Assembly (NCBI RefSeq): GCF_000172995.2
Contig: NC_014731.1
Span: 120,001 to 152,000, forward strand
Length of the DNA: 32,000 nt
Source of the DNA: Halogeometricum borinquense DSM 11551
GTDB taxonomy: Archaea > Halobacteriota > Halobacteria > Halobacteriales > Haloferacaceae
Reading direction: 5' to 3'
This document shows positions 4,312-30,037 of this stretch, piece after piece. The translations under genes and the position numbers were made by a program. Positions within the stretch are counted from its first letter, which is position 1. Every line of letters begins with the position of its first letter. The notes under the pieces were generated by a model. The model ran no database searches, was not told the origin of the DNA, and worked only from the letters and a program-made list of their open reading frames with translations.

Positions 4312-6075
4312 TCAGTCGGATTCCGTCGTGAACGTGACGGTCCCGCCCGTCACCTCGTCGCCCGAGTCAATACAGACGGCGACGGCGACGTAGGTCGTGT
4401 CACTCTCAAGATGTACGAGTTCGTCGAACGTGTCGTCTTCATCGACATCCTCAGCGTCGTCGCTGGCGAGCGTATTTGCTTTGTCACCCTTAATCCAGTA
4501 GTCGAAACGAGTTTCGACTTCGTCACCGTCCAACTCGCTGACGCGCCCTTCGAGAGAAGCCGCGTCATCGCTGACATAGCTCGGTTCGAGCGTCTCCACC
4601 CGGAACGGCGCCTCGTGATCATCGTCGGTCGTAAACGCCCGCCGGCCGCCGCGGACCACCCGGTCGTCGGTTTCAGCGAACGCCTCGAATACGTACGTCG
4701 TCCCGTGTTCGAGGTCAGAGACGTCGGCGTTGAACGAGCCCGTCGATGACTGGTGACCGCTTTCGACTCGCTCGCTCGTCTCATCTCTTTGATCTTCGAT
4801 CCAGTACTCGAAGCCGACGGCCGGTGACGACACATCGCCGAGACCGGTGAGTTCACCGATGAGCGTTGCATCCGTCTCATCGACATCGCTCACACTGCGC
4901 GTCGAGACGGCGAACTCGTCGCTGTCGCCGCCACCGTCATCACCATCACTGATGGCTGCATCGACGTTTAGCAGTCCCGCACCGCCTTCATCCTCGTCAA
5001 GGCCGATGTCTTCAGCCGCTTCGGTGAGTCGCTTCCGTGCCTCTTCGTTCGAGATACCCGTAGACATCAGGATGGCTGCCGCACCGGCGACGTGCGGCGT
5101 CGCCATCGATGTTCCGGAGTAGACTTGGTAGCCACCGATGACTGTCGAACGAATCTCTGTACCGGGTGCAACGATTTCGACCTCCGAACCGGTAGACGAG
5201 AACTCCGAGAGTTCGTCCTCGTCATTGACCGACCCGACAGCGATGACCTCCGGATACGCACCGGGGTAATGAACACAGTCAGAACACGGACCCTCATTTC
5301 CGGCGGCACCGACGAGTAACGACCCCCGCTCGTACGCGTATTCGACAGCGTCCTTGATGATGGACGACCCTGAAGTCGCCCCGAGACTCATACTGATGAC
5401 GTCGTGGCCCTGGTCTGCGGCCCACTTTATACCCTCAGCGACACCGGAGGCGGAGCCGCCCCCATCACCACTGAGCACCTTTACAGAGTGAAGTGTCGCA
5501 CGGGTGCTGACGCCGAGAATACCTTGGTCGTTGTTTACCGCGTTTGCAATACCGGCGCAGTGAGTGCCGTGGTTGTGGTCGTCGTTCCACGGAACGTCAC
5601 CCCGGTCAGAGTCCACAACTGCGTATCCCTCACCGAGATTTTGGCTCAAATCCGGATGTTCGCTGTCGATACCAGTATCGAGGATAGCCACGTGCGCCCC
5701 CGAACCGTCGTATCCGCGCTGGTGGGCTGCATCCGCGGCTACGCGCACGCACCCCCACGGCATCGATTGACCGAGGGCGTGAACTTCGATATCGCGTTCG
5801 ACGTAGCGAAGCTCACCTTCCGCCCGGAATTTTTCAACGAGTTCGTCTGGAAAATCACCGACGAGAGCGTTTCCAGACTCACCAAAGTCGATTTCTGTTT
5901 CAATCGTGTTCGCCTGCGCACGTGCAATATCGACGCCATACTGAGATTTGGTTCCGAGTACGAGACGGGAGTTTCCACCCTCGTCTGCGGATGCTTGTCC
6001 CGCAAGTCCGGAGCCAAGAATTCCGATCCCAATACCGCGTATAACCGACCGCCGATAGACTTTCTTTCTTCCCAT
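4312..6075 (-). CDS. Secreted subtilisin-family serine protease (halolysin-like) with two tandem C-terminal beta-sandwich-like domains
   Basis: Tat-like signal 'KVYRRSVIRGIGIGILGSGLAGQASA'. An inhibitor-I9-like propeptide is present. The catalytic motifs are 'AILDTGID', 'HGTHCAG' and 'GTSMATPHVAGAAA'. The C-terminal ~200 aa consists of two related ~100-aa units (nt 4315-4605 and 4606-4914). Confidence 0.93.
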   Translation of the reverse strand: MGRKKVYRRSVIRGIGIGILGSGLAGQASADEGGNSRLVLGTKSQYGVDIARAQANTIETEIDFGESGNALVGDFPDELVEKFRAEGELRYVERDIEVHALGQSMPWGCVRVAADAAHQRGYDGSGAHVAILDTGIDSEHPDLSQNLGEGYAVVDSDRGDVPWNDDHNHGTHCAGIANAVNNDQGILGVSTRATLHSVKVLSGDGGGSASGVAEGIKWAADQGHDVISMSLGATSGSSIIKDAVEYAYERGSLLVGAAGNEGPCSDCVHYPGAYPEVIAVGSVNDEDELSEFSSTGSEVEIVAPGTEIRSTVIGGYQVYSGTSMATPHVAGAAAILMSTGISNEEARKRLTEAAEDIGLDEDEGGAGLLNVDAAISDGDDGGGDSDEFAVSTRSVSDVDETDATLIGELTGLGDVSSPAVGFEYWIEDQRDETSERVESGHQSSTGSFNADVSDLEHGTTYVFEAFAETDDRVVRGGRRAFTTDDDHEAPFRVETLEPSYVSDDAASLEGRVSELDGDEVETRFDYWIKGDKANTLASDDAEDVDEDDTFDELVHLESDTTYVAVAVCIDSGDEVTGGTVTFTTESD

Positions 6076-7154: not shown

Positions 7155-7898
7155 TCAGGACAACTGACTCATCTCCAGTGGTGTCAGCGTCGTCATGGTT
7201 GGGACCGGCGTTTCCGATACGTCCTGCAAGGACGGCGATGGCACCGACTTGTTGACCGTCGCTTCTCCCCCAGTAGCGGCAGTCGGACTACGGGTCACCT
7301 CAAACTCATTAGCCTCGGCATCCCACTCGAAGGAAAATCCGCGACCGTCCCACTCGAACTCGTCGCCCGTGAACTCGAAACGTACATCGTCACCGATATC
7401 GACTTCGAGACCGTCATCGATGGACCACTCGAAGTCGATGACCGAACCCTCGTATTCGACCTCGTCGTCCTCGTTCTCGAACTCGGAGTCGCTCCCGGTT
7501 CCGGTAGCCTCGAAGTCAACGTCGCCGTTTCCCTCATATTCGAAATCGATTGCCTCTGTCGAGACGACGATTGCCAGTTCTATCTCGTCGGACTCGAACT
7601 CGAAATCGATGCTCGGGTTCGCCTCAACGGTGAACTCGGCGGTACCAGCGCGAGTCTCAAACGAGACGCCCGCGTGGTCGAACTCGACATCACCGTTCTC
7701 GTCTCGCTCGAATTCGAGCGACTGTTCAGGCCGGTCGCTCCGAGTTTCGGTCACTTGCTGATCGCTCCGCTGCGATCCATCGGATGCGCGGGTTGGCTGT
7801 CGATCTCTCTGTCTGGACGCTGTCACGACGCCAAGAGAGAGGGCGGCCAATCCGTTCCCGATGCTAATCAACCACTCACGTCTGAAGAGGTCAGCCAT
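7155..7898 (-). CDS. Tat-signal secreted acidic strand-repeat protein (aromatic-rich relative of the hyper-acidic family)
   Basis: ORF 7155..7940(-). The ATG at 7898 gives 'MADLFRREWLISIGNGLAALSLGVV', a twin-arginine signal. The body carries repeated hxhE elements: 'IDFEFE', 'IDFEYE', 'VDFEAT', 'VEYEGS', 'IDFEWS', 'VRFEFT', 'FSFEWD' and 'NEFEVT'. The antisense ORF 7101..7916(+) is Arg-rich and was rejected. Confidence 0.7.
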   Translation of the reverse strand: MADLFRREWLISIGNGLAALSLGVVTASRQRDRQPTRASDGSQRSDQQVTETRSDRPEQSLEFERDENGDVEFDHAGVSFETRAGTAEFTVEANPSIDFEFESDEIELAIVVSTEAIDFEYEGNGDVDFEATGTGSDSEFENEDDEVEYEGSVIDFEWSIDDGLEVDIGDDVRFEFTGDEFEWDGRGFSFEWDAEANEFEVTRSPTAATGGEATVNKSVPSPSLQDVSETPVPTMTTLTPLEMSQLS

Positions 7899-8111
7899 TC
7901 TCGATCCCCAGAGTAAGATTTCGTATAACAGAACTATCAATCTCGGGTATCCGAGTGGTTACCACGTTACGCCGAGAATACAGGTACGCACAGAGAGGCC
8001 GTATTCTCACTTTGCAACCGGTTATCGCCGCTATCGTAGGGGCGACCGACGACTAGAGCAAGAACACGAATCCCGCAAGAAACTCAACGGTGAGGTGATT
8101 TCGCCGGGCAG

Positions 8112-13091: not shown

Positions 13092-13281
13092 CGGACCGAC
13101 TCTTGGATAGCGCTGTCCTGTCGTAGCGGCGTTTTGGAAAGTCGGTCAGAGATACTCAGAAACGTCTGCTGGGGCGTACTCAAATCACGTAAATGGACTG
13201 GGGACATAGCTATTCCGGGCTTGTGTGCTAAGTGTTCACATCACCCATACCATCATTAGGGGGTATGCCAATCATCAACGT

Positions 13282-14364
13282 ATGGAGAGAGATGTCAATA
13301 GACGCCGGTTTCTCGGTGCATCAACCCTTCTCATCGGTGCACTTGCCGGTTGCCCCGGTGGGCAGCCCGAAGAAACGCCGGCGACAACGCCGTCACCGTC
13401 ACCCGAGGAGACGCCGACAGCGACACCAACACCCGAAGAGCCAATGGCAGAAATGGGAGCGGAGGTAACAGTTAGACAGGAATCGGGGAAAACAGTGTAC
13501 TGGGTTCTTCCGGGGGAGCGCCGGCTCAGCCCCACCGTATTCGGCACCCCAGATAATCCACGGTTCGGTGCCGACCTTCTCGAGTTCCGAATCGAACAGG
13601 CAAAGCAGTTACCGGAACCGCTCAGTAATGCGATTCCGCAGTTACTACAGGACTTGCCGTCTCTGGTGGCCGTACCAGAGCAAGCGCGAGAGCCAGTTGA
13701 CAGCCCGATTGCTCACGAGAAGTTGACAGAGCCGACGCTATTCAGCGACAACGCACAGATTACCAGTGGGGAGTTCGAGGTGACCTATAAGGACCAACGA
13801 CCGTACGACCGTCCCGGAGCACCGGGCGACACGCCGGACGAGGCGGACTTGACGGCAACCTTCACCGACCCGGCAGAGAACGAATACGAACTGCAACTCG
13901 ATCACATCGTACAGCCACCGATTCCGGGGTACGAAACCGGCGGTGGCGTAATGACCGGTGCTTGGCATCACGGTGTGACCGGGACGGGATCACCGTTGAT
14001 GCCGAAACTATTCGCGTACGGAGCGTTCTGGGGGGTCGGAAACGTACTCGTCAACGGTGAGGTAGCCACCGAAGACGGGTTCAGAGTGATACATTTCATG
14101 ACCACACAGACCGTCCGCGACCAAGACTACCGACTCGCCCTCGATGAGGAGTTACCGCTTCCAGCTGAGAGTACTATTGCAGGGCGTGCCCATCATACCC
14201 ACGGGGTAGTGCTTCCGATCAGACCAACACCGGATGGGCCCGTGTTCGATCCAGTTCCAACCGCGTTCGAACTTCCAAACGGTAACCCGCAGCCGTTCAT
14301 CCACGCCATGTGGGAACAAGAAGAACTCGTTAATTCACCATTTAAACAGGAGATGTCCGGGTGA
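13282..14364 (+). CDS. Tat-lipoprotein of unknown function
   Basis: The ATG at 13282 gives 'MERDVNRRRFLGASTLLIGALAGC', a twin-arginine signal plus lipobox Cys. This is followed by the Thr/Pro/Glu linker 'ETPATTPSPSPEETPTATPTPEEP'. The body contains 'GAWHHGVTG' and 'GRAHHTHG'. I recognise no domain. Confidence 0.75.
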   Translation: MERDVNRRRFLGASTLLIGALAGCPGGQPEETPATTPSPSPEETPTATPTPEEPMAEMGAEVTVRQESGKTVYWVLPGERRLSPTVFGTPDNPRFGADLLEFRIEQAKQLPEPLSNAIPQLLQDLPSLVAVPEQAREPVDSPIAHEKLTEPTLFSDNAQITSGEFEVTYKDQRPYDRPGAPGDTPDEADLTATFTDPAENEYELQLDHIVQPPIPGYETGGGVMTGAWHHGVTGTGSPLMPKLFAYGAFWGVGNVLVNGEVATEDGFRVIHFMTTQTVRDQDYRLALDEELPLPAESTIAGRAHHTHGVVLPIRPTPDGPVFDPVPTAFELPNGNPQPFIHAMWEQEELVNSPFKQEMSG

Positions 14365-14435
14365 CAGCGAAGTCAGATCGCACCAAGGTACTGTATGATA
14401 ACATCAAAACCGATCTGGAGCCAGCGAGTATACCA

Positions 14436-14969
14436 ATGCAACTCAGTCGGCGAAACGTTCTCGGACTGAGCGGCGTCGCACTCGGCGTTCTCGCCGGATG
14501 TACCGCACCGTCAGAGGAGACGCCCGGCGAATCGCCAACCGACACGCCGACGTCGTCGCCGACAGCGACGCCGTCACCGACTACAGATGCCACCCCGAGT
14601 CCAACCCAAACACCAACCGCGACTCCAACTCCGAACGCGCTCGACGGCGAAATAACCGTTACCGGATCAGAGTGGGTACTCGCTCCCGACGCGTTTCAAG
14701 CGACGGTCGGTCAAGAACTGACCATCCACTTCGAGAACGTCGGAGAGGTCGCACACAACCTTACCGTTGGAGAATTCCCGGCCGATGAACGAACGGTCGC
14801 CGATCAGGACGAAGAAGGGTCGTTCATAGTCAAGACAGACACGATACAGCCAGGAAAGACCACTTCCGTTACGTTCACCCCTACATCAACGGGGACGTTC
14901 CCCTACTGGTGTGATGTCGCAGGCCATCGGGAAGCCGGGATGGTCGGAGAAATGACAGTGGTAGAGTGA
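14436..14969 (+). CDS. Halocyanin-like type-1 copper protein (cupredoxin), Tat-lipoprotein
   Basis: The ATG at 14436 gives 'MQLSRRNVLGLSGVALGVLAGC' (Tat signal plus lipobox), followed by a long Thr/Pro/Ser linker. The cupredoxin ligand set is 'VAHN' ... 'YWCDVAGHREAGMVGEMTV' (His, Cys, His, Met). Confidence 0.88.
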   Translation: MQLSRRNVLGLSGVALGVLAGCTAPSEETPGESPTDTPTSSPTATPSPTTDATPSPTQTPTATPTPNALDGEITVTGSEWVLAPDAFQATVGQELTIHFENVGEVAHNLTVGEFPADERTVADQDEEGSFIVKTDTIQPGKTTSVTFTPTSTGTFPYWCDVAGHREAGMVGEMTVVE

Positions 14970-15127: not shown

Positions 15128-16672
15128 TTACTCGCCGTTCGCCTCTCCGTCGTGGGAGAGCATCCGTTCGAGCATCTCGATCTCATCGTTGTCCAGCTCA
15201 TCGAGATCCATATCCGCGAGGTCATCGAGGTCGTCCGCACCGGTCTCGGTGCCGAGTTCGATGATCTCATCGCGGGTCAGGTCGTCGAGGAACGCTCCGA
15301 CCTCGATGTCCTCGTGCTCGTCTCGTTCGAGATCGACGGTCTCGCCGTCAGACTCCAACTCAAGCCCGTGGGTCTCGACTTCAACCGCATCGCCGCGCTG
15401 TTCGATTTCGTGCTCGTCTGTCTCGAATTCGACCTCCTCGTCGTCGTTCTCGAACTCGACGTCGTCCTCGTGATCTTCGACCTCTAGGTCGTCATCGTGC
15501 TGTTCGATTTCGTGCTCGTCCGTCTCGAACTCGACATCGTCCCCGCCATCCTCGCTTTCGAAGTCGATTCCGTCCTCGTGATCTTCGACATCAACGCTGT
15601 CATCGTCCTGTTCGATGTCGTGATCCTCGGTCTCGAACTCGAGGCGGTTACCATCGTTCTCGAAATCGATGTCGTCGATTTCGACTTCGAGAGCGTCCTC
15701 GATCTGCTCGATTTCGCCGCCGTCGAATTCGATGTCTGCCATCTCGTCGGTTACTTCTAAGTCAACCGTGCCAGTGGCGTCTTCGAAGTCGAGGCGGTCA
15801 CCGTCGTTCTCGAAGTCGAGACCATTTTCGTCTTCGACTTCGGCGTCGTCGCCCTCCTGTTCGACCTCGGTACCGTCTGCTTCAACGTCAACCTCGTCTT
15901 GCTTGCCGAGGTTCTCGAAATGGAAGCCGGCCTTCTCGACTTCGAGTTTCTTGCCGTCGTGTTCGATTTCGTGTTCGTCGGTCTCGATTTCGACCTCGCC
16001 GTGATCGCGTTCGACATCGACGTCATCGTTCTCGAACTCAAGGTCGCTGGCGTCGTCCTCGAACTTGTTGCCGCCGCGCTCGTATTCGACCTCGTCCGTT
16101 TCGACTTCGACGCTCTCGCCGCGCTGTTCGATCTCGTTGTCTTCGAACTCAACGTCAACTACGTCGCCGCCGTCGTCGCTCTCGAAGTCGAGACCGTCCT
16201 CGTGGTCTTCGACCTCTAGGTCGTCATCGTCCTGTTCAATCTCGTGGTCACCGGACTTTGCTTCGACCTCGTCCTCGTCGTTTTCGAAGTCGAGTTCAGC
16301 TTCGTCGTCCTCGACCGCTACGTCCTCGTCGTTCTGTTCGATATCCAAGCCGTCAAACTCGACATCGACCTCGTCATCGCCCTCGTTGGACTCGAAGTCG
16401 AGATCCTCCTCGTCGTCCTCTACTTCGACATCGTCGCCGTGCTGTTCTATTTCTCCGTCCTCGGTTTCGACCTCTACGTCACGGCTTGCATCGCTCTCGT
16501 GGCTATTCACGACCATGTCGTGACCACTCGCAAGACCGATATCGAGCGGGTCTGTTGCTACTTCAGAGCTGACAGCATCCCCCGGGACCGCGACCGCTAC
16601 CGGCGTCGCTGTGCCGACAAGCAGGACGACCACGAGGAACGTGATCAGCGCGAATCGATTACTTTGTTTCAT
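15128..16672 (-). CDS. Secreted hyper-acidic strand-turn repeat protein, type A copy 1
   Basis: ORF 15128..16723(-). The ATG at 16672 gives the Sec-like signal 'MKQSNRFALITFLVVVLLVGTATPVAVAVPG'. About 10-11 super-repeats follow, such as 'VDVEFEDNEIEQRGESVEVETDEVEYE' and 'VEFETDEHEIEQHDDDLEVEDHEDDVEFENDDEE'. I counted 65 D/E in one 119-residue stretch. The non-repeat C-terminal tail is 'FLDDLTRDEIIELGTETGADDLDDLADMDLDELDNDEIEMLERML'. Confidence 0.8.
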   Translation of the reverse strand: MKQSNRFALITFLVVVLLVGTATPVAVAVPGDAVSSEVATDPLDIGLASGHDMVVNSHESDASRDVEVETEDGEIEQHGDDVEVEDDEEDLDFESNEGDDEVDVEFDGLDIEQNDEDVAVEDDEAELDFENDEDEVEAKSGDHEIEQDDDDLEVEDHEDGLDFESDDGGDVVDVEFEDNEIEQRGESVEVETDEVEYERGGNKFEDDASDLEFENDDVDVERDHGEVEIETDEHEIEHDGKKLEVEKAGFHFENLGKQDEVDVEADGTEVEQEGDDAEVEDENGLDFENDGDRLDFEDATGTVDLEVTDEMADIEFDGGEIEQIEDALEVEIDDIDFENDGNRLEFETEDHDIEQDDDSVDVEDHEDGIDFESEDGGDDVEFETDEHEIEQHDDDLEVEDHEDDVEFENDDEEVEFETDEHEIEQRGDAVEVETHGLELESDGETVDLERDEHEDIEVGAFLDDLTRDEIIELGTETGADDLDDLADMDLDELDNDEIEMLERMLSHDGEANGE

Positions 16673-16861
16673 ACTCGTGTTGTTGCTATGTCCGATCACT
16701 GCGACCGCGAAGCAATGGAGCACAGTGTTGAACCGGGGATCTCGCCCGGTGGCAGCGTAACTGGCGAGAAAAGTGAGGGGGCGCTATCTCAGCTCTCGCT
16801 ACGAGAGCCACGTCGTACTCACTGTCCCGGAAATTCGGTAGTACGTTTGGGTCCGCCGTGA

Positions 16862-18265
16862 TTATGGGCTGCCCTCGCTGTCGTCATCGGTAAGCATACG
16901 TTCGAGCATGTTGACCTCGTTGTCGTTGAGATCCTCGAGATCCATGTCCGCGAGGTCATCGAGGTCGTCCGCACCGGTCTCGGTGCCGAGTTCGATGATC
17001 TCATCGCGGGTCAGATCGTCGAGGAACGCTTCGACTTCTGTGTCGTCGTGATCATCGCGTTCGAGGTCAATGCTTTCGCCGTCGGATTCGAGATCGAGGC
17101 CACCGTCTTTCTCGACATCGAGGTTATCGCCGCTGTGCTCGATGTCGTGGTCGTCGGTTTCCAGTTCCGTCTCGTCGCCGTCGTTCTCGAACTCGAAGTC
17201 GTCGTCGTGGTCTTCGACATCGACATCGTTACCGTCTTGTTCGATGTCGCGGTCGTCATCCTCGAATTCGACCTCCTCACCGTCGTTCTCGAAGTCAATC
17301 CCATCGTCGGTGTCGACTTCGAAGTCGTCATCGTCTAACTCGATGTCAGTGGCGTCGTTCCGGAAGTCGATGCCGTTCCGGTCGTTCTCGAACTCGAACT
17401 CCTCGCCCTCAACATCGGCGTCACCACCTCTATGTTCGATATCGTGCTCGTCGTCGGCCTCGAACTCGTGGTCGTCGCCGTCGCTCTCTAAGTCGAGGTC
17501 GTTGTCATCATCCTCGACTTCGAGGTCGTCGCCACGCTGTTCGATCTCGCGCTCGTCGGTCTCGACGTCGATATCGTCACCGTCGAGATCGATGTCAATC
17601 CCGCCGCTACCGTCGAACTCGATATCGAGACCGCCGTCGTTCTCGAATTCGAGGTCGGATAGCTCAACGTCCGCCTCGTCGCCTCGTTTCTCGATCTCGG
17701 TCTCGTCGTGTTCGACGTCGAGGTCGTCGCCTTCAGCTTCGTAGTCGAGGTCGTGACCGTCGGTGTCGTCTTCGACCTCAAGACGGTCGCCATCCTGTTC
17801 GATTTCGGCCTCGCCGGTTTCGACGTCGACGCGGTCACCGTCGTCGTCAGCCTCGAAGTCGAGGTCGTTCTCCTCATCCTCAACTTCGACTTCGTCGTCG
17901 CGCTGTTCGATCTCGTGGTCATCTGTTTCGACATCGACATCGTCACCGCCGTCGCGAGACTCGAATTCGAAGTCGTCCTCGTCATCTTCGACTTCAAGGT
18001 CATCGCCGTCCTGTTCGAGGTCTAAGTCCTCGAACTCGACATCAGCCTCGTCGTCGTCGGCGTTAGACTCGAAGTCGAGGTCGTCATCATCATCCTCGAT
18101 TTCGGCTTCGTCGCCGCTGTGTTCAATTTCGCCGTCTTCGGTGTCAATGTCGACTTCGTTGTCCTGGTGATCAGCAGCGACCGGCATCGCGGCACCGGCA
18201 GTGATCATACCGACCATCAGGAACAGTATCAGTACTAATCGAAATGTGTCTTTCATGGCCTTCAT
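16862..18265 (-). CDS. Secreted hyper-acidic strand-turn repeat protein, type B copy 1
   Basis: ORF 16862..18352(-). ATGs at 18265 and 18256 give 'MKAMKDTFRLVLILFLMVGMITAGAAMPVAADH', a Sec-like signal. It has the same repeat grammar and carries the same C-terminal tail as the adjacent A1 gene. Confidence 0.8.
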   Translation of the reverse strand: MKAMKDTFRLVLILFLMVGMITAGAAMPVAADHQDNEVDIDTEDGEIEHSGDEAEIEDDDDDLDFESNADDDEADVEFEDLDLEQDGDDLEVEDDEDDFEFESRDGGDDVDVETDDHEIEQRDDEVEVEDEENDLDFEADDDGDRVDVETGEAEIEQDGDRLEVEDDTDGHDLDYEAEGDDLDVEHDETEIEKRGDEADVELSDLEFENDGGLDIEFDGSGGIDIDLDGDDIDVETDEREIEQRGDDLEVEDDDNDLDLESDGDDHEFEADDEHDIEHRGGDADVEGEEFEFENDRNGIDFRNDATDIELDDDDFEVDTDDGIDFENDGEEVEFEDDDRDIEQDGNDVDVEDHDDDFEFENDGDETELETDDHDIEHSGDNLDVEKDGGLDLESDGESIDLERDDHDDTEVEAFLDDLTRDEIIELGTETGADDLDDLADMDLEDLNDNEVNMLERMLTDDDSEGSP

Positions 18266-18806
18266 CTCGTCGTCTATCACCCCACAAGTTAGGACAGAAT
18301 CGGCGAATCTATGCAAGGACAGAAACTTCGAACCTGTCCCGACTGTGGGCATCTAACTGTAGGGATTAGGTATATATAATATTATTATAACTAATAGGTT
18401 CCTGAGTAAAACGGAGTTCATACCATGAGTGTGCGAGCATAGGATGAAGTTCCATATACCAAGTCACCGTGCGACCAGTCCCCCATGGTTCGCAGGCCGA
18501 AACCTGTTGTATCCGAATACACAGGCCGAAAAGCGCCACTCCTCCCACACCTGAAGACGCAAGTATGCGTTCACACTATAAGACGCGGGGATGCGCTCGC
18601 GCTATGTATCACTACGAAGCGGCTCTGACCATTACACAGTACCGGATAAGAGCCGGATCATCCGAGTCGGTAACAGGGTTACGGTTCCCTCAACCAACAC
18701 TCATGTACTTGGCTGTTGTATACAGAGGTGAACGAAAAACAGCCGATTACGGGCAGCTCAAGTCCCGTATCCCCTCGGCAGAGACAACCAAAACTACCAC
18801 TCAACA

Positions 18807-19310: not shown

Positions 19311-20105
19311 ATGTCCACGAACAGACGGCTTGACCCCGACGACGTGGTTGACGCCGTATCGCGTCGCGCGGAGATTATGCAACGTCTGTTAGACGGACCT
19401 CAGTACAACCGAGATATTCGCGAATCAGTCGGAGTATCACGCTCGACCGCGTACAAAGCGATTAGCGAGCTCGAAGAGATGGGACTTGCCCGGAGGGGCA
19501 GTGAGGGGTATGAACTCACAGCGACCGGACGCCTGTTGTTCGAGGAGTATCGTCGGTTCCGAAACCGGGTCGAAGCCGTCTGTCATCCGGCCCAGTTACT
19601 CTCCATTCTACCGGCGGACATCGACATCAACTTCGAAGTTCTCGAAGGTGCTGAAGTGTCCTTCGCGGAGCGATATGCACCAAACCGTCCGGTCACAGAG
19701 ATAGCGGACGTGATCCGCGACGCTGACGTGTTACGGGGAACCGGACCGGTCGTCCTCCCAAGCTACGTCGAACTGTTCCACGATCAGTTCGTCGCTGGCG
19801 AACTCGAAGCCGAGTTGGTTTTCGAACGGGCCGCGTTCGACCATCTCTCTACGGACTACGCTGACGAGTTCTCCGAGGCCGTCGAAAGCGGCGCTCTCGA
19901 AGTCCGAGTGACGGACGAAGAGCTCCCGTTCGGCTTACTGATGATCGAAAAGCCGACTCAGAAAGTCGGTGTCATCGTGTACGACCGCGGGGGAGAACTC
20001 AGAGGATTCATTCTGAACGACTCCGAAAATGCGGTCGAGTGGGGCGAAAAAAAGTGGGAACGGTACCGAGAGGCGGCGGCCCCGCTTACGCCCGGAGATA
20101 ACTAA
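19311..20105 (+). CDS. Winged-HTH transcriptional regulator with a large C-terminal domain (haloarchaeal ArsR/FilR1-like architecture)
   Basis: 'RRAEIMQRLLDGPQYNRDIRESVGVSRSTAYKAISELEEMGLARRGSEGYELTATGRLL' is a wHTH. A ~180-aa acidic C-terminal domain follows, as in many haloarchaeal regulators of this type. Confidence 0.85.
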   Translation: MSTNRRLDPDDVVDAVSRRAEIMQRLLDGPQYNRDIRESVGVSRSTAYKAISELEEMGLARRGSEGYELTATGRLLFEEYRRFRNRVEAVCHPAQLLSILPADIDINFEVLEGAEVSFAERYAPNRPVTEIADVIRDADVLRGTGPVVLPSYVELFHDQFVAGELEAELVFERAAFDHLSTDYADEFSEAVESGALEVRVTDEELPFGLLMIEKPTQKVGVIVYDRGGELRGFILNDSENAVEWGEKKWERYREAAAPLTPGDN

Positions 20106-20330: not shown

Positions 20331-21233
20331 ATGACCGACTTTGACGGGCCGATGACATCGGACCTCACCCAAGAGGCGTACGACGTCTACCTCGACCTCG
20401 CCCAAGAGGTCACAGCACACGAAAACGACGTTGTTGAAACAGTTCCAGACTTTTTCGACATCGGTTCCGTACACGAGTGTCTGCAGTTTCCACTGAATCT
20501 GTGGGAATCCGGGCGGAAGCCGATGCGGACGGTTCCTGCGCTTGTCGCATATGAGCCGTTGCTCGACGGCGACGAGGCCGACACAGTGGCACAGATTCTG
20601 GTCGGCCTCGACGTGTTTGTGATGATGCTCGACGAGTTCATCGATACCGCCCGAACGGACAGGCGTTTCCGAACCCAACTCGCGGTCAACGTCGCGTTTT
20701 CGAGTTTGCTGTCGTTCGCCACCATTCCGGAGTCGGCCAAGGAGACGGTCGTCGATGCGCTCACTGCGTACCTCGTCGAAGCCTCCCGAATCCCGGCCGT
20801 CGAACGGGAGGTCGCGCGTGCCCTCACAAACACGACATCGAGCGAGCAGGCGATGGACCTGATCCGATTCGCGTACGGCTTTCGTGCGCGGGACATCGCC
20901 GTGTTCGGTGCCCTACCGGCGCTCGTCTCTGACGTTGACAGAGAAGTGGCCGACCGAATCGAGAGCGACCTCCAGACTTACCGGGCGCACTGTCTCCTCT
21001 ACGACGATATCAGAGACATCGAGCAAGACCGGCGAAACGGGATCGAGACGCCCGTCATGTGGCTGTTAGACCGTCACCGCGACCCCGAGGTAGTTGCGGC
21101 ACGGATTGCGTCGGTCTACCGGTCGTTCGAGTATTCGGATGCGGACTACACGGACGTACTCCGCGAGATGGAACCAACGAGTGATGATCCCATCGACGAA
21201 CTGACATCGGCGATGCCGTCACAGTCCGAGTAA
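20331..21233 (+). CDS. Hypothetical protein, possible class-I isoprenoid (polyprenyl/terpenoid) synthase-like fold
   Basis: 300-aa acidic ORF with two Asp-rich motifs about 124 residues apart. They are 'MMLDEFID' (D-E-x-x-D, aa 101-105) and 'LLYDDIRDIEQDRRNG' (DDxxD, aa 225-229). This resembles the FARM/SARM motifs of trans-prenyl synthases. The function call is inference only. Confidence 0.6.
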   Translation: MTDFDGPMTSDLTQEAYDVYLDLAQEVTAHENDVVETVPDFFDIGSVHECLQFPLNLWESGRKPMRTVPALVAYEPLLDGDEADTVAQILVGLDVFVMMLDEFIDTARTDRRFRTQLAVNVAFSSLLSFATIPESAKETVVDALTAYLVEASRIPAVEREVARALTNTTSSEQAMDLIRFAYGFRARDIAVFGALPALVSDVDREVADRIESDLQTYRAHCLLYDDIRDIEQDRRNGIETPVMWLLDRHRDPEVVAARIASVYRSFEYSDADYTDVLREMEPTSDDPIDELTSAMPSQSE

Positions 21234-21268: not shown

Positions 21269-21454
21269 TCACCGACGCATCCACTTGGCACGACAGCGGT
21301 CGCTGCAGAAACTATGAATCACTGTTTCTCCGTCGCGAGTTTGGCTAGCTTTCGTTGGATGCCATTCGGAAACGTCGATGATTGAGCCACAGGCGGCACA
21401 GCGGTCAATCTGCCGTCCCGGGAAGTGCGACGTGAGTTGTTCTCTCATAGCCAT
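21269..21454 (-). CDS. Small FCS/TRASH-type zinc-finger protein (CxxC ... FCSxxC)
   Basis: The ATG at 21454 gives 'MAMREQLTSHFPGRQIDRCAACGSIIDVSEWHPTKASQTRDGETVIHSFCSDRCRAKWMRR'. Its four Cys residues are arranged as in zf-FCS/TRASH metal-binding modules. The longer ORF extending to 21544 looks like a spurious extension. Confidence 0.6.
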   Translation of the reverse strand: MAMREQLTSHFPGRQIDRCAACGSIIDVSEWHPTKASQTRDGETVIHSFCSDRCRAKWMRR

Positions 21455-21672
21455 GGGCCTATCTAGTGATAGGGGCCGAGTGGTGGTCACTTTCCCGGGT
21501 CGGACCTGTGCACACGGAAAGACGCCTGTACAGCCGTAACACATGTTTCGAGACTCGAACCATGGGTATCGATTGAAACACCTGCCAAACGAACCAGCAA
21601 CAAACGTATCATCTGGTCCAATCTGCCGGCAACATCGGGAAGAAGTGATATCCGCGCCGCTATTGCGGGCCG

Positions 21673-21722
21673 GTCTCGTCTCGTCTCGTCTTGTCTTGTC
21701 TCGTCTCGTCTTATCTTGTCTT
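21673..21722. repeat. Pentanucleotide microsatellite (GTCTY)x10
   Basis: Read directly as gtctc gtctc gtctc gtctt gtctt gtctc gtctc gtctt atctt gtctt. The last unit overlaps the TAA stop (21721-21723) of the His-acidic protein gene on the minus strand. Confidence 0.95.
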
Positions 21723-22497
21723 ACCCGATTTCGATGTCGATACCGTCGCCGTCGTGGTCGATTTCGATGTCGTCACCCTCGACATCGATTTCGTCGTCGC
21801 CGTGGTCGAGTTCGACCTCACCGTCGCCTTCGACTTCGAGGTCGTCATCGTCGAATTCGACTTCAGCGTCGCCATCGACCTCTATCTCGTCGTCACCGTG
21901 ATCGACCTCGACTCCATCGTCACCCTCGGCTTCGAAGTCGTCACCATCGTGTTCGACGTGAGCATCGTCTCCTTCGGCTTCGATCTCATCATCGCCGTGA
22001 TCGACCTCAACCCCGTCGTCGCTCCCAACTTCTAATTCATCCTCATCGTGTTCCACGTGAGCGTCGTCACCCGCAGCGTCAATCTCGTCGTCACCGTGGT
22101 CAACGTGGATATCGTCACCCTCGGCTTCGAGGTCGTCCTCATCGTGTTCCACGTGAGCGTCGTCATCGACCTCTATCTCGTCATCGCCGTGGTCGAGTTC
22201 GAGTCCATCGTCTGCCCCGACTTCGATTTCGTCATCATCGTGGTCAACATGGACATCATCACCCTCGGCTTCGACGTGATCATCGCCGAAGTCGAGTTCA
22301 ACTTCCTCATCGTCGTCATCGTCGAAGTCTATATCAACATCATCATCGTCAAAGTCGTCGTCGAACTCATCCTCATCGTCGAAGTGGTCGAAGTCGGTAC
22401 TCTCGGCACTCGCTACCCCGACACCACCGGCTAACGCGACGACGACCAACAGGCTAACTACGACTACCGCTCCAGCTGTGAATGCGTGTCGTCTCAT
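21721..22497 (-). CDS. Secreted His-decorated hyper-acidic strand-turn repeat protein (type C)
   Basis: The signal is 'MRRHAFTAGAVVVVSLLVVVALAGGVGVASA'. The mature part consists only of D, E, G, V, I, L, F, A, H, S and T, with no Lys or Arg. It has about 22 octad-like units, for example 'GVEVDHGDD EIEAEGDD AHVEHDEDD LEAEGDD'. There are about 17 His residues, falling on every second unit. Confidence 0.8.
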   Translation of the reverse strand: MRRHAFTAGAVVVVSLLVVVALAGGVGVASAESTDFDHFDDEDEFDDDFDDDDVDIDFDDDDDEEVELDFGDDHVEAEGDDVHVDHDDDEIEVGADDGLELDHGDDEIEVDDDAHVEHDEDDLEAEGDDIHVDHGDDEIDAAGDDAHVEHDEDELEVGSDDGVEVDHGDDEIEAEGDDAHVEHDGDDFEAEGDDGVEVDHGDDEIEVDGDAEVEFDDDDLEVEGDGEVELDHGDDEIDVEGDDIEIDHDGDGIDIEIG

Positions 22498-23052
22498 GAG
22501 TTTGGTCCGTCAGCCGATACGCTCGACTAACGGGTTATAATAACAGAGCCAGACACGTCGCTTTATCGTGGAAATCATGTGTACCAAACGAACACAGACC
22601 TCGAATACAAACCCATGATTACCTTCTCGAACCATCAAACGCCGTCCAATGGTTCAGACACAATCGAAAATGAGAGATTGACGATAGATGAGTTGCCGAC
22701 GACCGCAACGAGCCACCCGCCAGTGACCAGATCGATAGTGATCTGTCTGTCGGCGGCGGTTGCACGCCACCGACTCGGTCATCGGCCCGACAATGGACCT
22801 GCGTCCGGTGTCGTTCGGCTTCGCGGCTGAGCCCTCACGCTGTTCGGTGCCGTCGCGTCGGACCCGAGTATTGCACTCGATGCGTCTCCAGTGGTCGCAT
22901 CACCAACGCAGGCTGGAGACGGAGCTACTTGGATGGAGGTGTGGCGTGAACTGGAAGGGATCCCGAACGGACGAGACGAAGTAGGTCGTCGCCCGTCCCA
23001 CCGTCACACTCCGTGCTGTCAACACCGAACACGCCGGTGAGTGATTGGCTGT

Positions 23053-24441
23053 CTAGTCGTCCTCGTTATTGTCCTCCTGTTCGACGTCAACGTTCTCACC
23101 ATCGGATTCGACCTCAAGCCCATCCTCGTCTTCGACATCAAGTACCTCGTCCTCCTGCTCGATGTCGTGCTTGTCCGTCTCGAACTCAAGGCCGTTCCGG
23201 TCGTTCTCGAACTCCGTGTCGTCATCGTGATCTTCGACATCGACATCGTCATCGCGCTGCTCGATGTCGTGTTCGTCAGTCTCGAACTCGACATCGTCGC
23301 CACTACCCTCGCTCTCGAAGTCGATTCCGTCCTCGTCGTCTTCGACCTCGAGGTCGTCACCATCCTGCTCGATGTCGTGCTCGTCGGTTTCGAGGTCGGT
23401 CATCTCGTCGTCCGATTCGAGATCGGTGTCGCCGGCTTCGGCGTCCAGCGCGTCGCCGTCCTGCTCGATCTCGCCCCCATCGAATTCGACGTCAACCGCC
23501 TCGTCCGTCGCCTCTAAATCGACCGTCTCAGCGGCGTCTTCGAAGTCGAGGCGGTCACCGTCGTTCTCGAAGTCGAGACCATTTTCGTCTTCGACTTCGG
23601 CGTCGTCGCCCTCTTGCTCGACCTCGGTACCGTCTGCTTCAACGTCAACCTCGTCTTGCTCGCCGATGTTCTCGAAGTGGAAGCCAGCCTTCTCGACTTC
23701 GAGTTCCTTGCCGTCGTGTTCGATTTCGTGCTCGTCGGTCTCGATTTCGACCTCGCCGTGATCGCGTTCGACATCGACGTCATCGTTCTCGAATTCGAGG
23801 TCGTCAGCGTCGTCCTCGAACTTGTTGCCGCCGCGCTCGTATTCGACCTCGTCCGTTTCGACCTCGGCGCTCTCGCCGCGCTGCTCGATGTCGGCGTCCT
23901 CAGTCTCGACGTCTAGCTCGTCGCCACCGTCCTCGGACTCGAAGTCGAGACCGGCCTCGTGGTCTTCGACTTCGGTTCCGTCGTCATCCTGTTCGATGTC
24001 GTGGCCGTCCGATTCGGCCTCAACCTCGTCCTCGTCGCTCTCGAAATCCAGGTCCGCCTCATCGTCCTCCACATCGAGCGAGTCATCGTCCTGCTCGATT
24101 TCCTGCTCGCCGCTGTCGATATCGACCGTGTCATCATCCTCGTTGGACTCGAAGTCGAGATCCTCTTCCTCGTCCTCTACCTCTGCATCATCGCCATCGT
24201 GTTCGATTTCGCCGTCCTCGGTCTCGACCTCAACGTCTCCACTCTCCTCGTTATCTTCGTCGTCTGCGGTATCGACGACTGTCTCGTGGTCGCCGACGAG
24301 GTCGGCACCGGACGGGTTCGATACAGATGCAGTGCTGGTAATGCCCACCGTGCCCGCGGCCGCGGCAGGGAGTGCTACACTAGCAACTAACCCGACCGCG
24401 AGGAACGTAACCAGCGTGAGTGTCTGTATTCGGTCCATCAT
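23053..24441 (-). CDS. Secreted hyper-acidic strand-turn repeat protein, type A copy 2
   Basis: ORF 23053..24525(-). ATGs at 24441 and 24438 give 'MMDRIQTLTLVTFLAVGLVASVALPAAAAG', a Sec-like signal. The central ~115 aa are almost identical to A1 ('RGES.EVETDEVEYERGGNKFEDDA.DLEFENDDVDVERDHGEVEIETDEHEIEHDGK.LEVEKAGFHFEN...'). It ends within the repeats and lacks the C-terminal tail domain. Confidence 0.8.
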   Translation of the reverse strand: MMDRIQTLTLVTFLAVGLVASVALPAAAAGTVGITSTASVSNPSGADLVGDHETVVDTADDEDNEESGDVEVETEDGEIEHDGDDAEVEDEEEDLDFESNEDDDTVDIDSGEQEIEQDDDSLDVEDDEADLDFESDEDEVEAESDGHDIEQDDDGTEVEDHEAGLDFESEDGGDELDVETEDADIEQRGESAEVETDEVEYERGGNKFEDDADDLEFENDDVDVERDHGEVEIETDEHEIEHDGKELEVEKAGFHFENIGEQDEVDVEADGTEVEQEGDDAEVEDENGLDFENDGDRLDFEDAAETVDLEATDEAVDVEFDGGEIEQDGDALDAEAGDTDLESDDEMTDLETDEHDIEQDGDDLEVEDDEDGIDFESEGSGDDVEFETDEHDIEQRDDDVDVEDHDDDTEFENDRNGLEFETDKHDIEQEDEVLDVEDEDGLEVESDGENVDVEQEDNNEDD

Positions 24442-24618
24442 CGTATGTTGAATTATTCGAGCCCTATACCCCTGTAATAAGTGGGAGTTGAACCGGGCGG
24501 CCACGCTCTCGGTACCGAGCGACAAAATGGAGGTGACTTCAGGTTTGCCCCCAGTTGTGGGATCGCACGATACCGAGCGTCCCGAACCGGGCAGCGGGCT
24601 CAGCTCCGGGGCGTCCGA

Positions 24619-26013
24619 TTAGCCGTCAGCGCTGAGATAGCTCTCCAGCAGGTTAAGGGTCTCTCGGTCGAGATCCTCGATCTCCTCGTCAGCGAGTTCT
24701 TCGTAGTCGTCCGCGTCGGACTGGCTGATGAGATTATTCACCTGCGAGGTGGAGATGTCATCGAGGTACTGTCCGGTCTCGGCGTGGCTGTGCTCGCTCC
24801 GTTCGAGATCGACGGTCTCGCCGTCAGATTCGAGGTCAACACCGCCATCTTTTTCGACATCGAGTCGGTCGCCGCTCTGCTCGATGTCGTGGTCGTCGTT
24901 CTCGAACTCAAGTTCGTTCTCGTCGTTCTCGAACTCGACGTCGTCCTCGTGGTTTTCGACATCGACATCGTCACCGCGCTGTTCGATGTCGTGGTCGTCG
25001 TCCTCGAACTCGGTCTCTTCGTTGTCTGACTCGAAGTCCACTCCATCGTCGGTGTCGACTTCGAGTTCATCGTCCTCTTGTTCGACGTCAGTGGCGTCGT
25101 TCCGGAAGTCGATGCCGTTCCGGTCGTTCTCGAACTCGAACTCCTCGCCCTCGACGTCGGCGTCACTACCTGTGTGTTCGATTTCGTGCTCGTCGTCGGC
25201 CTCGAACTCGTGGTCGTCGCCGTCGCTCTCTAGGTCGAGGTTATTCCGCTCGTTTTCGACCTCCAGGTCGTCGCCGTCCTGTTCGATCTCCTGATCGTCG
25301 GTATCGATGTCGACATCGTCATTGTCGAGGTCGATGTCGATGTCGCCAGCGTCCTCAGACTCGAAGTCGAGGTCGCCGTTTTCGTTCTCGTATTCGACGT
25401 TGTCGCTCTCGACCTCAGCGTCGTCGCCGTGTTTCTCGATTTCGGCCTCGTCGTGTTCGACGTCGAGGTCGTCGTCCTCAGCCTCGTAGTCGAGGTCGTG
25501 ACCGTCAGTATCGTCCTCTACCTCAAGACGATTACCGGATTGTTCGATTTCGGCCTCGCCGGTTTCAACATCGACCTCGTCGTCGTCTTCCTCGGCCTCA
25601 AAGTCGAGGTCGTTCTCGTCGTCTTCGACTTCGGCGACGCCGTCATGTTTCTCAATCTCTTGGTCGTCCGTTTCGACATCAACATCGTCGCCACCGTCCT
25701 CGCTCTCGAAGTCGAGGTCGTTGTCTTCGTCCTCCACCTCAAGGTCGTCGTTGTCCTGCTCGATTTCGTTACCGTCGGATTCGATATCGGCAGTATCCTC
25801 GTCCTCGTTTGTCTCAGCGTCGAGGTCGTTTTCGTCGTCCTCTACCTCTGCGTCGTCGCCGTCGTGTTCGATTTCACCGTCTTCGGTGTCGACGTCGACT
25901 TTATCATTTCCTCCGTGGCTGGCGGCCACCGGCAGCACAGCACCGCCGGCGATCATGCCAACCGCGAGGAACACGATCAGTACGAGTCGGAATTTCTTAT
26001 TCATAGTTGACAT
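24619..26013 (-). CDS. Secreted hyper-acidic strand-turn repeat protein, type B copy 2
   Basis: ORF 24619..26073(-). ATGs at 26013 and 26004 give 'MSTMNKKFRLVLIVFLAVGMIAGGAVLPVAASH'. It is colinear with B1 throughout. Its C-terminal tail is a divergent version, 'YLDDISTSQVNNLISQSDADDYEELADEEIEDLDRETLNLLESYL'. Confidence 0.8.
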   Translation of the reverse strand: MSTMNKKFRLVLIVFLAVGMIAGGAVLPVAASHGGNDKVDVDTEDGEIEHDGDDAEVEDDENDLDAETNEDEDTADIESDGNEIEQDNDDLEVEDEDNDLDFESEDGGDDVDVETDDQEIEKHDGVAEVEDDENDLDFEAEEDDDEVDVETGEAEIEQSGNRLEVEDDTDGHDLDYEAEDDDLDVEHDEAEIEKHGDDAEVESDNVEYENENGDLDFESEDAGDIDIDLDNDDVDIDTDDQEIEQDGDDLEVENERNNLDLESDGDDHEFEADDEHEIEHTGSDADVEGEEFEFENDRNGIDFRNDATDVEQEDDELEVDTDDGVDFESDNEETEFEDDDHDIEQRGDDVDVENHEDDVEFENDENELEFENDDHDIEQSGDRLDVEKDGGVDLESDGETVDLERSEHSHAETGQYLDDISTSQVNNLISQSDADDYEELADEEIEDLDRETLNLLESYLSADG

Positions 26014-26171
26014 CTCGTCGTTCTCAACCCAGTATGGGGAGTGGTTCGAGACCCCTGACTGGGACAAGCACACATTTGGTAGGAACCCACATAAATCTAA
26101 GATAACTGACTAATCATCCGATATAGCGGTTTATATCGTGTGAACCGGGGAACCAACGGTTGAGGGATCGA

Positions 26172-29292: not shown

Positions 29293-30037
29293 GGCACTGT
29301 CTAGTTAGTGACCTCCTCAACCGGCGTACGTCCGTTGAGCGATTGATGCGGTCGTTGAAAGTTATAGTATTGCGCAAATTGTATGAACCACTCGCGGATG
29401 CTTCCGTGACTGCCCACCCACGAATTATGGAAGCGGTCGACTCGCATTTTGAGGGTGTGAAACCATTTTTCGATGAGGTTTCGCTCGACGTAGTCAAGCC
29501 GACCGCTCAATCCTAATCGAGAGAGGGCAGTCTGATAGCCGTAGCCATCAACCAGAAACACAGCATCTGAGAGATCATGTTTCTCGGAAAGTCGATGGAG
29601 AAACGCAGCAGCCGGATCGGTACCATGCCGTCCAAACAACTCGACATCGAGAATCAGCTTCGTCTCGATGTCTATTGCGGCGTACAACCAAGACCACTCA
29701 CCGTTGATTTTGACAGCGGTCTCATCAACCGCAACCCGCTTCGGCGTTGCCTCAGGCGGGTTGTGACCGCTGTCAGCCAGTCGATGTACCCACTGCCAAA
29801 CAGCTTGATGAGAGCGTTCAACGCCGAGTATTCGAAGAATTTCTTTTGTCTCTCTAAGCGAACACCCGGTCGCGTGGAGCTGGACGGCGAACACCCTGAC
29901 GGGTGTCGCCGTCCGCTCACGCTCCCAAGTTTCTTCATAATCCGTCTCAAAGCACTCGCTGAGCAGGTCTGCGAGCATCTTGACCAACTAACTCAACGAC
30001 CTGCTCGTTCCTCAAACTGGCTTAACTAGACAGTGCC
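29293..30037 (-). mobile_element. Intact IS6-family insertion sequence (745 bp)
   Basis: It has perfect 15-bp terminal inverted repeats: GGCACTGTCTAGTTA at 29293-29307 and its reverse complement at 30023-30037. It contains a single transposase ORF and is flanked by an 8-bp direct repeat. The first 8 nt of the IR (GGCACTGT) match what I recall for the IS26 IR. Confidence 0.9.
29301..29987 (-). CDS. IS6-family DDE transposase
   Basis: 228 aa. 'VAVDETAVKINGEWSWLYAAID', 'VFLVDGYGYQTAL' and 'VERNLIEKWFHTLKMR' supply a D, D, E triad in IS6-typical contexts. Confidence 0.92.
   Translation of the reverse strand: MVKMLADLLSECFETDYEETWERERTATPVRVFAVQLHATGCSLRETKEILRILGVERSHQAVWQWVHRLADSGHNPPEATPKRVAVDETAVKINGEWSWLYAAIDIETKLILDVELFGRHGTDPAAAFLHRLSEKHDLSDAVFLVDGYGYQTALSRLGLSGRLDYVERNLIEKWFHTLKMRVDRFHNSWVGSHGSIREWFIQFAQYYNFQRPHQSLNGRTPVEEVTN

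Follow-up and report, generated by a model that had tools for sequence, protein, structure and literature searches.

What does a protein do that is more than half acidic residues, carries no Lys or Arg beyond its predicted signal peptide and spaces its histidines at regular intervals? The question is raised by a gene on the 339,010-bp megaplasmid of Halogeometricum borinquense, within a stretch of 32,000 nucleotides from strain DSM 11551 (NC_014731.1, positions 120,001 to 152,000; hereafter the window, whose own numbering is used throughout). The gene encodes the C type of three types of acidic repeat protein, A, B and C, found in this stretch. An earlier note, made from the letters alone, had proposed that the units of C stack as strands and that ladders of His, Asp and Glu on them suit the binding of transition metals. 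Here we report that C is a genuine protein-coding gene under purifying selection and the smallest member of a haloarchaeal family of acidic four-strand repeat proteins, A/B/C, which is undescribed in Pfam and NCBIfam. Judging from the sequences compared, the regular His stripes of C are limited to two closely related genera, Halogeometricum and Haloferax, and metal-ligand His is not a family-wide requirement. C thus appears as a lineage-specific variant within an uncharacterised family, with a function that is plausible but unproven.

The C gene and its product

The gene and its parts are as follows.

21721..22497, minus strand: C-type acidic repeat protein gene, ATG start, 258 codons plus stop (open reading frame listing, composition)
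22405..22497, minus strand: signal peptide, residues 1-31 (MRRHAFTAGAVVVVSLLVVVALAGGVGVASA), predicted cleavage between ASA and E (from the conserved motif)
22315..22404, minus strand: Asp/Phe-rich acidic linker, residues 32-61 (ESTDFDHFDDEDEFDDDFDDDDVDIDFDDD) (sequence)
21724..22314, minus strand: repeat domain, residues 62-258, six repeats of ~33 amino acids (aa) with four strand-plus-turn units each, C-terminal end IDIEIG (segmentation, repeat identities, periodicities, AlphaFold2 strands)
22535..22543, minus strand: TATA-like element (TTATTATAA), putative C promoter ~40 nucleotides (nt) upstream of the ATG (read from sequence)

The gap of 555 bp between the C gene and the A-type gene upstream of it suggests that C has its own promoter. 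The 258-aa open reading frame, the absence of Lys and Arg after the signal and the alphabet of about 11 residue types, all described in the earlier note, agree exactly with the coordinates and composition found here. The whole protein is made up of D81, E42, V30, G28, H18, A18, I13, L10, F9, S4, R2, T2 and M1, and R2 and R3 (here as positions) are its sole Lys or Arg residues. Eleven residue types (D, E, G, V, H, I, A, F, L, S and T) make up the sequence that begins at residue 33, which holds 81 Asp, 41 Glu, 17 His and no Lys or Arg. Cleavage after A31 would leave a mature protein of 227 aa, 123 of them Asp or Glu (54%).

A sequence of this kind could be a non-functional low-complexity reading frame or an artifact of DNA rich in GAY and GAR codons. 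Long overlapping frames do exist, for example an Arg-rich one of 304 aa at 21543-22457 on the plus strand, and the exact C protein is missing from a big protein collection. GAY/GAR-rich coding, however, yields such overlapping frames as by-products, and several observations speak for the C frame. The ratio of nonsynonymous to synonymous substitution rates (dN/dS) is 0.09 over 226 codons between C and its syntenic orthologue of Haloferax mediterranei, and 79 of the 115 nucleotide differences between the two genes fall on third positions of this frame. Orthologues with the same signal peptide and a C-terminal EIDIG occur in at least five genera or bins, and the gene was also called on independent assemblies, including a Logan assembly that gave the exact C protein. 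The artifact explanation is effectively refuted.

Directly after the stop codon the minus strand carries a pentanucleotide tandem repeat, (GACGA/GACAA)n, at 21673-21723, of about 10 copies (period 5 and 94% matches in Tandem Repeats Finder, TRF). It is missing from the corresponding position in the H. mediterranei locus.

Repeat architecture and the A/B/C family

Residues 62-258 divide into 24 strand-plus-turn units of 6-12 residues, mostly 7-9, that group as six repeats of 32-36 aa. There are four unit types (h, hydrophobic): s1, h-E-h-D-H followed by GDD; s2, E-I-E-h-x followed by GDD; s3, A-H-V-E-H followed by DxDD; and s4, h-E-h-E followed by GDD. Hydrophobic residues recur in C with periods of 8.2 and ~2.2 residues, which is the signature of short amphipathic strands. 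The six repeats are mutually 58-81% identical at the DNA level (TRF: period 96 nt, 72% matches), indicating that they are old and that the pattern has been maintained rather than left by recent duplication. Their number is 6 in DSM 11551, 5 in H. mediterranei and at least 8 in a second H. borinquense strain (GCA_040679015), whose copy at L107:11359-12156 has 22 His and is truncated where the contig stops. Copy number is therefore polymorphic, and short-read assemblies break at the gene. Contigs of other H. borinquense assemblies end inside C (L107:11359-12156, L108:3829-4182).

Four paralogues of the A and B types lie in the window.

23053..24525, minus strand: A-type paralogue A490, maximal open reading frame 490 aa, likely start at the internal MMDRIQ... 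(BLASTP against C, E = 4e-9, 35% identity)
24619..26073, minus strand: B-type paralogue B484, maximal open reading frame 484 aa, likely start MSTMNKKF..., non-repeat acidic C-terminal tail (BLASTP against C, E = 8e-12)
15128..16723, minus strand: second A-type copy A531, maximal open reading frame 531 aa (open reading frame listing, composition)
16862..18352, minus strand: second B-type copy B496, maximal open reading frame 496 aa (open reading frame listing, composition)

All three types have a signal peptide followed by tandem repeats of ~33 aa, each with four h-acid-h-acid strands and G/D-D-D turns. This common repeat and the BLASTP matches of C to A and B bear out the earlier grouping of C with them, and orthologues of both A and B were found in H. 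mediterranei. Compared with A/B proteins (WP_004060684 and WP_049917533 of H. mediterranei, both 'hypothetical protein' in RefSeq), C shares the four-strand repeat of ~33-35 aa, the signal peptide, the locus and the taxonomic range and matches them in pairwise BLASTP at E = 1e-9 to 1e-11, but it is half as long and lacks the helical acidic tail of the B type. In H. borinquense and H. mediterranei, C also differs from A/B in its 11 residue types, with no K, R, N, Q or Y, and in a His density about twice as high, at phased positions. It has its own conserved signal end (...GTASA before D) and C-terminus (...EIDIG).

Some further features of the acidic genes were seen. The window holds two A-B gene pairs (15128-18352 and 23053-26073), and the C gene follows the second pair only. 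An acidic tail without repeats, helix-like in character (FLDDLTRDEIIELGTETGADDLDDLADMDLDELDNDEIEMLERML), closes both the B-type proteins and A531, and LDEDxLxxLL repeats in an insert of the H. mediterranei C protein are similar to it. Phe, Trp and Tyr abound in a different acidic β-repeat frame (261 aa maximal, 7155-7940, minus strand; DFEFESDEIE, FEWDGRGFSFEWD). It has no Pfam family but a good motif for the twin-arginine translocation (Tat) pathway (MADLFRREWLISIG), and possibly represents a further repeat family, exported by Tat.

Orthologues of C were sought by synteny, with a 300-aa protein encoded near C as the anchor, and the loci of eleven homologues of this anchor were fetched. C-type genes are present in 7 of the 11 loci made up of the window, L002 and L003-L011. 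The H. mediterranei orthologue has 347 aa (WP_231513001, 'hypothetical protein' in RefSeq) and is 83% identical over aligned columns. Six other orthologues come from two Natrinema species, Halomicroarcula and three metagenomic or metagenome-assembled genome (MAG) copies.

L004:12836-13231: C-type gene, Natrinema amylolyticum
L007:12686-13270: C-type gene, N. salsiterrestre
L008:1790-2290: C-type gene, Halomicroarcula sp. F13, a natural His-free orthologue
L009:132-662: C-type gene, MAG
L011:284-889 and L011:1602-2237: C-type genes, two copies, saltern metagenome contig

The eight sequences, aligned as A3, have in common a signal end of (T/V)ASA before D, E or Q, a length of 131-347 aa and a C-terminal end like (I/V)EIDIG.

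Predicted fold

The structure of C was explored with AlphaFold2. From the single sequence an all-β model was obtained with a predicted local distance difference test (pLDDT) score of 56. Residues 127-258, modelled with an alignment of 14 rows cut from the window's own paralogue segments (A5), gave a pLDDT of 60.5 and a predicted template modelling score of 0.50. In this low-confidence model each unit forms one strand of 5-6 residues, turns of 2-5 residues fall at GDD, and His is the last residue of the strand. The single-sequence model likewise assigns one strand to every unit. The proposal that the units are strands is therefore matched by the models, which have a pLDDT of only 56-60. The monomer is predicted as an antiparallel meander (pLDDT ~60), and its weak Foldseek neighbours (E >= 0.1, TM <= 0.48) are the FecR-like fold 4m0h, the CPAP G-box, OspA and LptA. 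FecR also gives a sub-threshold match (E ~0.03) in the N-terminal region of three of the four A/B copies. At E <= 10 there is no sequence match in PDB to C or B. No EF-hand was matched by Pfam in C, and the single DxDxDG match, D247-H-D-G-D-G252 near the C-terminus, corresponds to DDDGG or DYDGA in orthologues.

A different architecture is suggested by the top sub-threshold profiles of the H. borinquense and H. mediterranei C proteins, which are two independent VgrG-type models: DUF2345 (PF10106, E = 0.004-0.006) and T6SS_TssI_Fran (NF041249, E = 0.0003-0.007; model positions 8-132 of 163). C could then be a trimeric fiber of the gp5/VgrG triple β-helix type, with three chains as a prism and inward His, Tyr and Phe on the axis, where His3 sites could hold metal as in phage spike tips. 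T4 gp5C has an octapeptide repeat, which the hydrophobic period of 8.2 residues resembles. The profile scores, however, are far under the curated cut-offs (16.9 against 30.7 bits and 16.3 against 100 bits), are found in only two of the eight C orthologues and come with E-values that are unreliable for compositionally biased sequences. Unit lengths in C alternate between 9 and 7-8 rather than holding to a strict 8, the monomer model is antiparallel with the neighbours named above, and the signal peptide is a classical one. PADLOC and PHROGs gave no defense or phage affiliation, and the known contractile system of H. borinquense sits on another plasmid, according to a paper on the type VI secretion system (T6SS) and secretome (PMC11566945); the C-region genes do not appear in the accessible part of the supplements of that paper. 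We regard the triple β-helix as very unlikely.

Export signal

The hydrophobic core and the (T/V)ASA cleavage motif before D, E or Q are kept in all eight C-type orthologues. An RR pair occurs in two of them, H. borinquense (MRRHAF) and H. mediterranei (MRRHIL), and the other six signals start with MRQYLRK, MRETLRK, MRGNLFK, MREPLTK, MNAKLPR and MHTTRHK, in which the basic residues are single and separated. The start MRRH had earlier been taken as a possible, weak Tat motif. A Tat signal was considered and rejected, as C lacks a conserved motif like S/T-R-R-x-F-L-K and RR is restricted to the two species. Because RR is not conserved and the AxA site is kept in all orthologues, C is probably exported by a Sec-type signal and cleaved after ASA.

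The histidine pattern in C and its orthologues

About 17 His on alternate units had been noticed before, and both the count and the quoted units are found in the protein. His is present in 10 of 12 odd units and in 1 of 12 even units (Fisher p = 6e-4), with a periodicity peak at 16.4 residues whose power was reached by none of 5,000 shuffles. All but one of the 17 mature His are located in the repeat region. The two odd units devoid of His carry Phe at the His position (VELDF, AEVEF).

How far this pattern extends among orthologues is decisive for its interpretation. The aligned His of the H. borinquense protein are all kept in H. mediterranei except one, and h-x-h-[DE] is followed by His on ten occasions in each of these two proteins and never in the six other orthologues. 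In A3 the replacements are R/R/R/N/R at H200, T/T/Y/Y/T/S at H232 and Y/Y/I/I/Y/V at H248, and all six have Tyr in place of Phe215. In other genera the counterparts of the AHVEH units read ADVEY, AEVDY and ADIEY. The pattern is thus kept in H. mediterranei and the second H. borinquense strain, but not in the six C orthologues of other genera, and its loss beyond the two genera is the outcome that the earlier note had named as refuting its proposal. With Tyr, Arg, Thr, Asn, Ile, Val or Ser at the His positions elsewhere, and Phe at two of them within H. borinquense, these positions behave as structural strand ends that take an aromatic, cationic or polar residue and that changed to His in a single lineage.

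Within that lineage His is not confined to strands. The linker region of H. mediterranei C is expanded by ~120 aa, His/Asp-rich and with LLDH-type repeats; this non-strand N-terminal insert holds extra His in HEDDDHDDHEDDDH and in four LL(D/N)H repeats. Along with the 22 His of the second H. borinquense strain, this suggests selection on His content itself in this lineage. Scanning metagenomes for DNA that encodes DHGDDEIE gave 93 single chance matches and not one additional His-type C gene. One of these (L087, metagenome contig MDSV01175372.1, ~195-218) lies in an unrelated His/Asp/Gly-rich protein (GDHGDGHGDHGDGHGDHGDDEIE, HGEDGDHGEDGDHGEDGD) that carries an EF-hand-like segment, DTDNDNNLSWDEF.

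These data bear on the possibility that C is a dedicated extracellular transition-metal protein, in which His/Asp/Glu ladders on stacked strands would bind Cu, Ni, Zn and Co for buffering, storage or detoxification. Such a role would account for 17 His in ~226 mature residues phased at 16.4 aa, for their retention between H. borinquense and H. mediterranei and for their enrichment in the insert of the latter and in the longer strain variant. Chemical reasoning adds that in brine Mg and Na would swamp carboxylates on their own, where His would add selectivity. On the other hand, the His positions hold other residues in six orthologues and Phe at two places in H. borinquense itself, and the His pairs of AHVEH and xHVDH are spaced i, i+3, which would put them on opposite strand faces. 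No metal-handling gene is consistently linked to the locus, and C matches no metal-binding family. We consider a dedicated metal protein unlikely.

A proposed polyanionic β-repeat scaffold

The reading that we tentatively favor, at a little short of an even chance, is that C is an exported polyanionic β-repeat scaffold with a lineage-specific enrichment in His, to which transition-metal binding is a possible add-on. C would be exported, probably by Sec, and cleaved after ASA. Once extracellular, and surrounded by molar salt and divalent cations, it would fold into an amphipathic β-sheet or solenoid-like array. One face of this array would be small and hydrophobic, and the other face and the turns would form a dense carboxylate lattice. 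Coated with cations, C would serve jointly with A and B as a polyanionic scaffold or surface layer outside the cell. Mature C of the Halogeometricum/Haloferax lineage has lost every Lys and Arg, and the last residue of every second strand, as well as one outward position of s3, has become His in place of the aromatic or cationic structural residues of other genera. A side effect of this gain is a set of regular clusters of His and carboxylate, candidate sites for Zn, Ni, Cu or Co or for proton titration. Any metal or proton role of His would then be a lineage-specific add-on and not the core function of the family. The His stripes may provide the protein's only titratable or cationic groups, or they may provide His/carboxylate sites for these four metals.

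Several points weigh against this scaffold reading. Export, folding and ligand of C are inferred from sequence and models, and both structure models are of low confidence (pLDDT 56 and 60.5). Foldseek against PDB gave no structural homologue of the C model below E = 0.1, and neither C nor its A and B paralogues in the window gave an above-threshold match in Pfam, NCBIfam, PDB, PADLOC or PHROGs, so that C has no homologue of known function there. The scaffold role is the default that composition suggests. The null searches described below mirror the databases, from which 15 family proteins are absent, and say nothing on the rarity of the family. Finally, specific metal binding may just as well be the function under selection in the lineage, given that all Lys and Arg were lost while 17 His were gained.

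A bolder version of the last point, which we rate as rather improbable, is that A/B/C proteins have a new extracellular β-repeat fold (a salt- and cation-dependent amphipathic meander or a multi-chain β-helix) and that in Halogeometricum and Haloferax the switch from Tyr/Arg to His on every second strand made C a regularly spaced His/carboxylate lattice that takes up transition metals in brine, a 'metal sponge' or metal-templated fiber without a known metalloprotein counterpart.

Should the scaffold reading hold, haloarchaea have a conserved, unannotated set of exported hyper-acidic β-repeat proteins, which could shape divalent-cation handling, mineral nucleation, surfaces or trace metals in brines. 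Orthologues with Tyr/Arg and with His are a natural experiment on the metal selectivity of phased His at multimolar salt, and mature C, written in 11 letters free of Lys and Arg, is a natural reduced-alphabet β protein.

Genomic surroundings

The following genes near C or elsewhere in the window enter into the discussion of its role.

21269..21544, minus strand: DUF7576 four-Cys zinc-ribbon protein, 176 bp downstream of C (PF24461, E = 5.9e-12; RefSeq DUF7576 family)
20331..21233, plus strand: 300-aa protein, identical to Hbor_34180 / ADQ68940, weakly isoprenoid-synthase-like, trio member
19311..20105, plus strand: helix-turn-helix (HTH) regulator, HVO_A0261_N and FilR1_middle (Pfam E = 7.5e-36 and 3.2e-17), trio member
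14361..14969, plus strand: cupredoxin gene (PF00127, E = 2e-8), 6.7 kb from C with five genes between
4312..6075, minus strand: S8 subtilase gene; others at L008:4034-5998, L009:2364-4544 and L011:4132-5985

Plasmid pHM500 of H. mediterranei is syntenic, with a PAS/GAF/BAT regulator and, further along, the HTH regulator, the 300-aa gene, (DUF7576), C, A and B. The 300-aa protein has 27 homologues, and every one with a source name is haloarchaeal. The trio formed by the HTH regulator, the 300-aa gene and DUF7576 is found together in most fetched loci; the exceptions are L006, without DUF7576, L011, with no called regulator, and L009, with a regulator fragment only. In 10 of 11 loci (the window, L002 and eight of the nine loci with 10-kb flanks, L003-L011) the 300-aa gene has A/B-type genes no more than 10 kb away.

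Two neighbours had been cited earlier in support of a metal role. A zinc-ribbon gene does adjoin C; its identity, however, is DUF7576 rather than an FCS/TRASH-type finger (zf-FCS is matched at a sub-threshold E = 0.014 only), and it is the constant partner of the 300-aa gene, adjoining C only in H. borinquense and H. mediterranei. The halocyanin gene is present as the cupredoxin, but at the distance given above, and it recurs only in the loci of these two species and in none of the other nine. A functional link of C to either gene was therefore rejected, neither association being kept across orthologous loci. A copper survey of H. mediterranei lists the cupredoxin HFX_RS18740 alone. Elsewhere the recurrent neighbours are HxlR, PadR and BAT/HTH_10 PAS-GAF regulators, S8 protease and DUF7827/DUF7282 exoproteins. 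The surroundings are a regulator-rich exoprotein neighbourhood, not a metal-homeostasis one.

An S8 subtilase (halolysin-like), often with a PadR regulator gene, lies near acidic repeat genes in several genera and could process the repeat proteins. It brings in the reading of C as a largely disordered polyanionic exoprotein or pro-protein, acting by charge alone (nucleation or inhibition of Ca/Mg carbonate or sulfate minerals, surface shielding) or through S8-processed fragments. The 54% of Asp and Glu, the lack of basic residues and the low AlphaFold confidence are consistent with disorder, and the subtilase is found beside acidic genes in L008, L009 and L011 and in the window at 4312-6075. 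A protease-precursor antagonism system is moreover known in H. mediterranei (PMC12893001), but its precursor HFX_0892 is unrelated to C and has an α-helical active part. The strict alternation of hydrophobic and acidic residues, the four-strand repeat kept across genera and the dN/dS of 0.09 argue for a folded β protein, as in the scaffold reading. We rate this reading of C as rather improbable.

Other genes of the locus call for brief mention. Asp-rich motifs (MLDEFID, YDDIRDIEQD) occur in the 300-aa protein, which also matches polyprenyl or geranyl transferases weakly (Pfam E = 0.09; PDB 3lom, E = 0.018). The place of DUF7576/C is taken in Halogeometricum limi by a second helical protein (L006:11370-12347, minus strand) that carries DDVAD. 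Together these features suggest an isoprenoid-synthase-like enzyme pair. At 13225-14969 on the plus strand, a gene for a 379-aa protein without a family match, with a Tat-like RRFLGAS motif and a lipobox-like GALAGC, overlaps the start of the cupredoxin gene by 4 bp. The cupredoxin signal is similarly lipobox-like, and both H. mediterranei (HFX_RS18735/18740) and a further H. borinquense strain have conserved the pair. A DDE transposase (IS240-type, rve_3; 29301-29987, minus strand) marks an insertion sequence bordering the acidic-gene region.

Database and literature searches

Queried with C, a word index of 5.8 billion proteins gave no matches, and an exhaustive HMMER search of 1.84 billion representatives returned no true relatives, only three spurious eukaryotic low-complexity matches. 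The H. mediterranei orthologue would score E = 7e-55 in a local phmmer comparison. Exact look-ups of 15 A/B/C proteins, among them RefSeq entries, located not one in a collection of 15 billion proteins or among the representatives. Hyper-acidic repeat proteins seem to be systematically missing from large protein resources. The A/B/C family has been overlooked by routine tools, with low-complexity filtering hiding the proteins and assemblies breaking inside the genes. Scans of genome contigs with the C alignment and with the 300-aa anchor gave pattern matches, none of them confirmed by tblastn. BLAST against plasmids, with DNA and with protein, found H. mediterranei pHM500 only, the Bacillus matches being compositional, and no mention of the locus tags of the C region was found in the literature.

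Comparison with known systems

One of the nearest known systems is the RTX β-roll (GGxGxDxUx; HemolysinCabind, PF00353). Like C, it is secreted and very acidic, and its short tandem repeats alternate between a Gly/Asp turn and a short strand. Both could plausibly depend on cations to fold, and do so only after export. C nevertheless has no HemolysinCabind match at E <= 1 and falls outside the RTX family. Its units of 7-9 aa with a G-D-D turn, arranged in a 33-aa higher repeat of four strand types, differ from the nonapeptide GGxGxD, and its N-terminal signal peptide differs from the C-terminal signal by which RTX proteins leave through the type I secretion system.

With the gp5/VgrG triple β-helix (DUF2345; TssI) C has in common a β repeat of ~8 residues, a Gly/Asp turn and small hydrophobic residues that would point inward. 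It is set apart by irregular unit lengths, its signal peptide, a context without T6SS or phage genes and the antiparallel monomer model. The central sheet of OspA, the CPAP G-box and the FecR-like and LptA-like folds are, like the low-confidence C model, long antiparallel meanders of short strands and tight turns, with no sequence relationship to C.

Proteins rich in His and acidic residues, such as Hpn-type proteins and the sarcoplasmic histidine-rich Ca-binding protein, combine His with long Asp/Glu runs in tandem repeats. The shared composition makes non-enzymatic cation buffering plausible for C. There is no homology to these proteins, and the His of C stand at fixed strand positions rather than in clusters, where other genera have Tyr, Arg or Thr.

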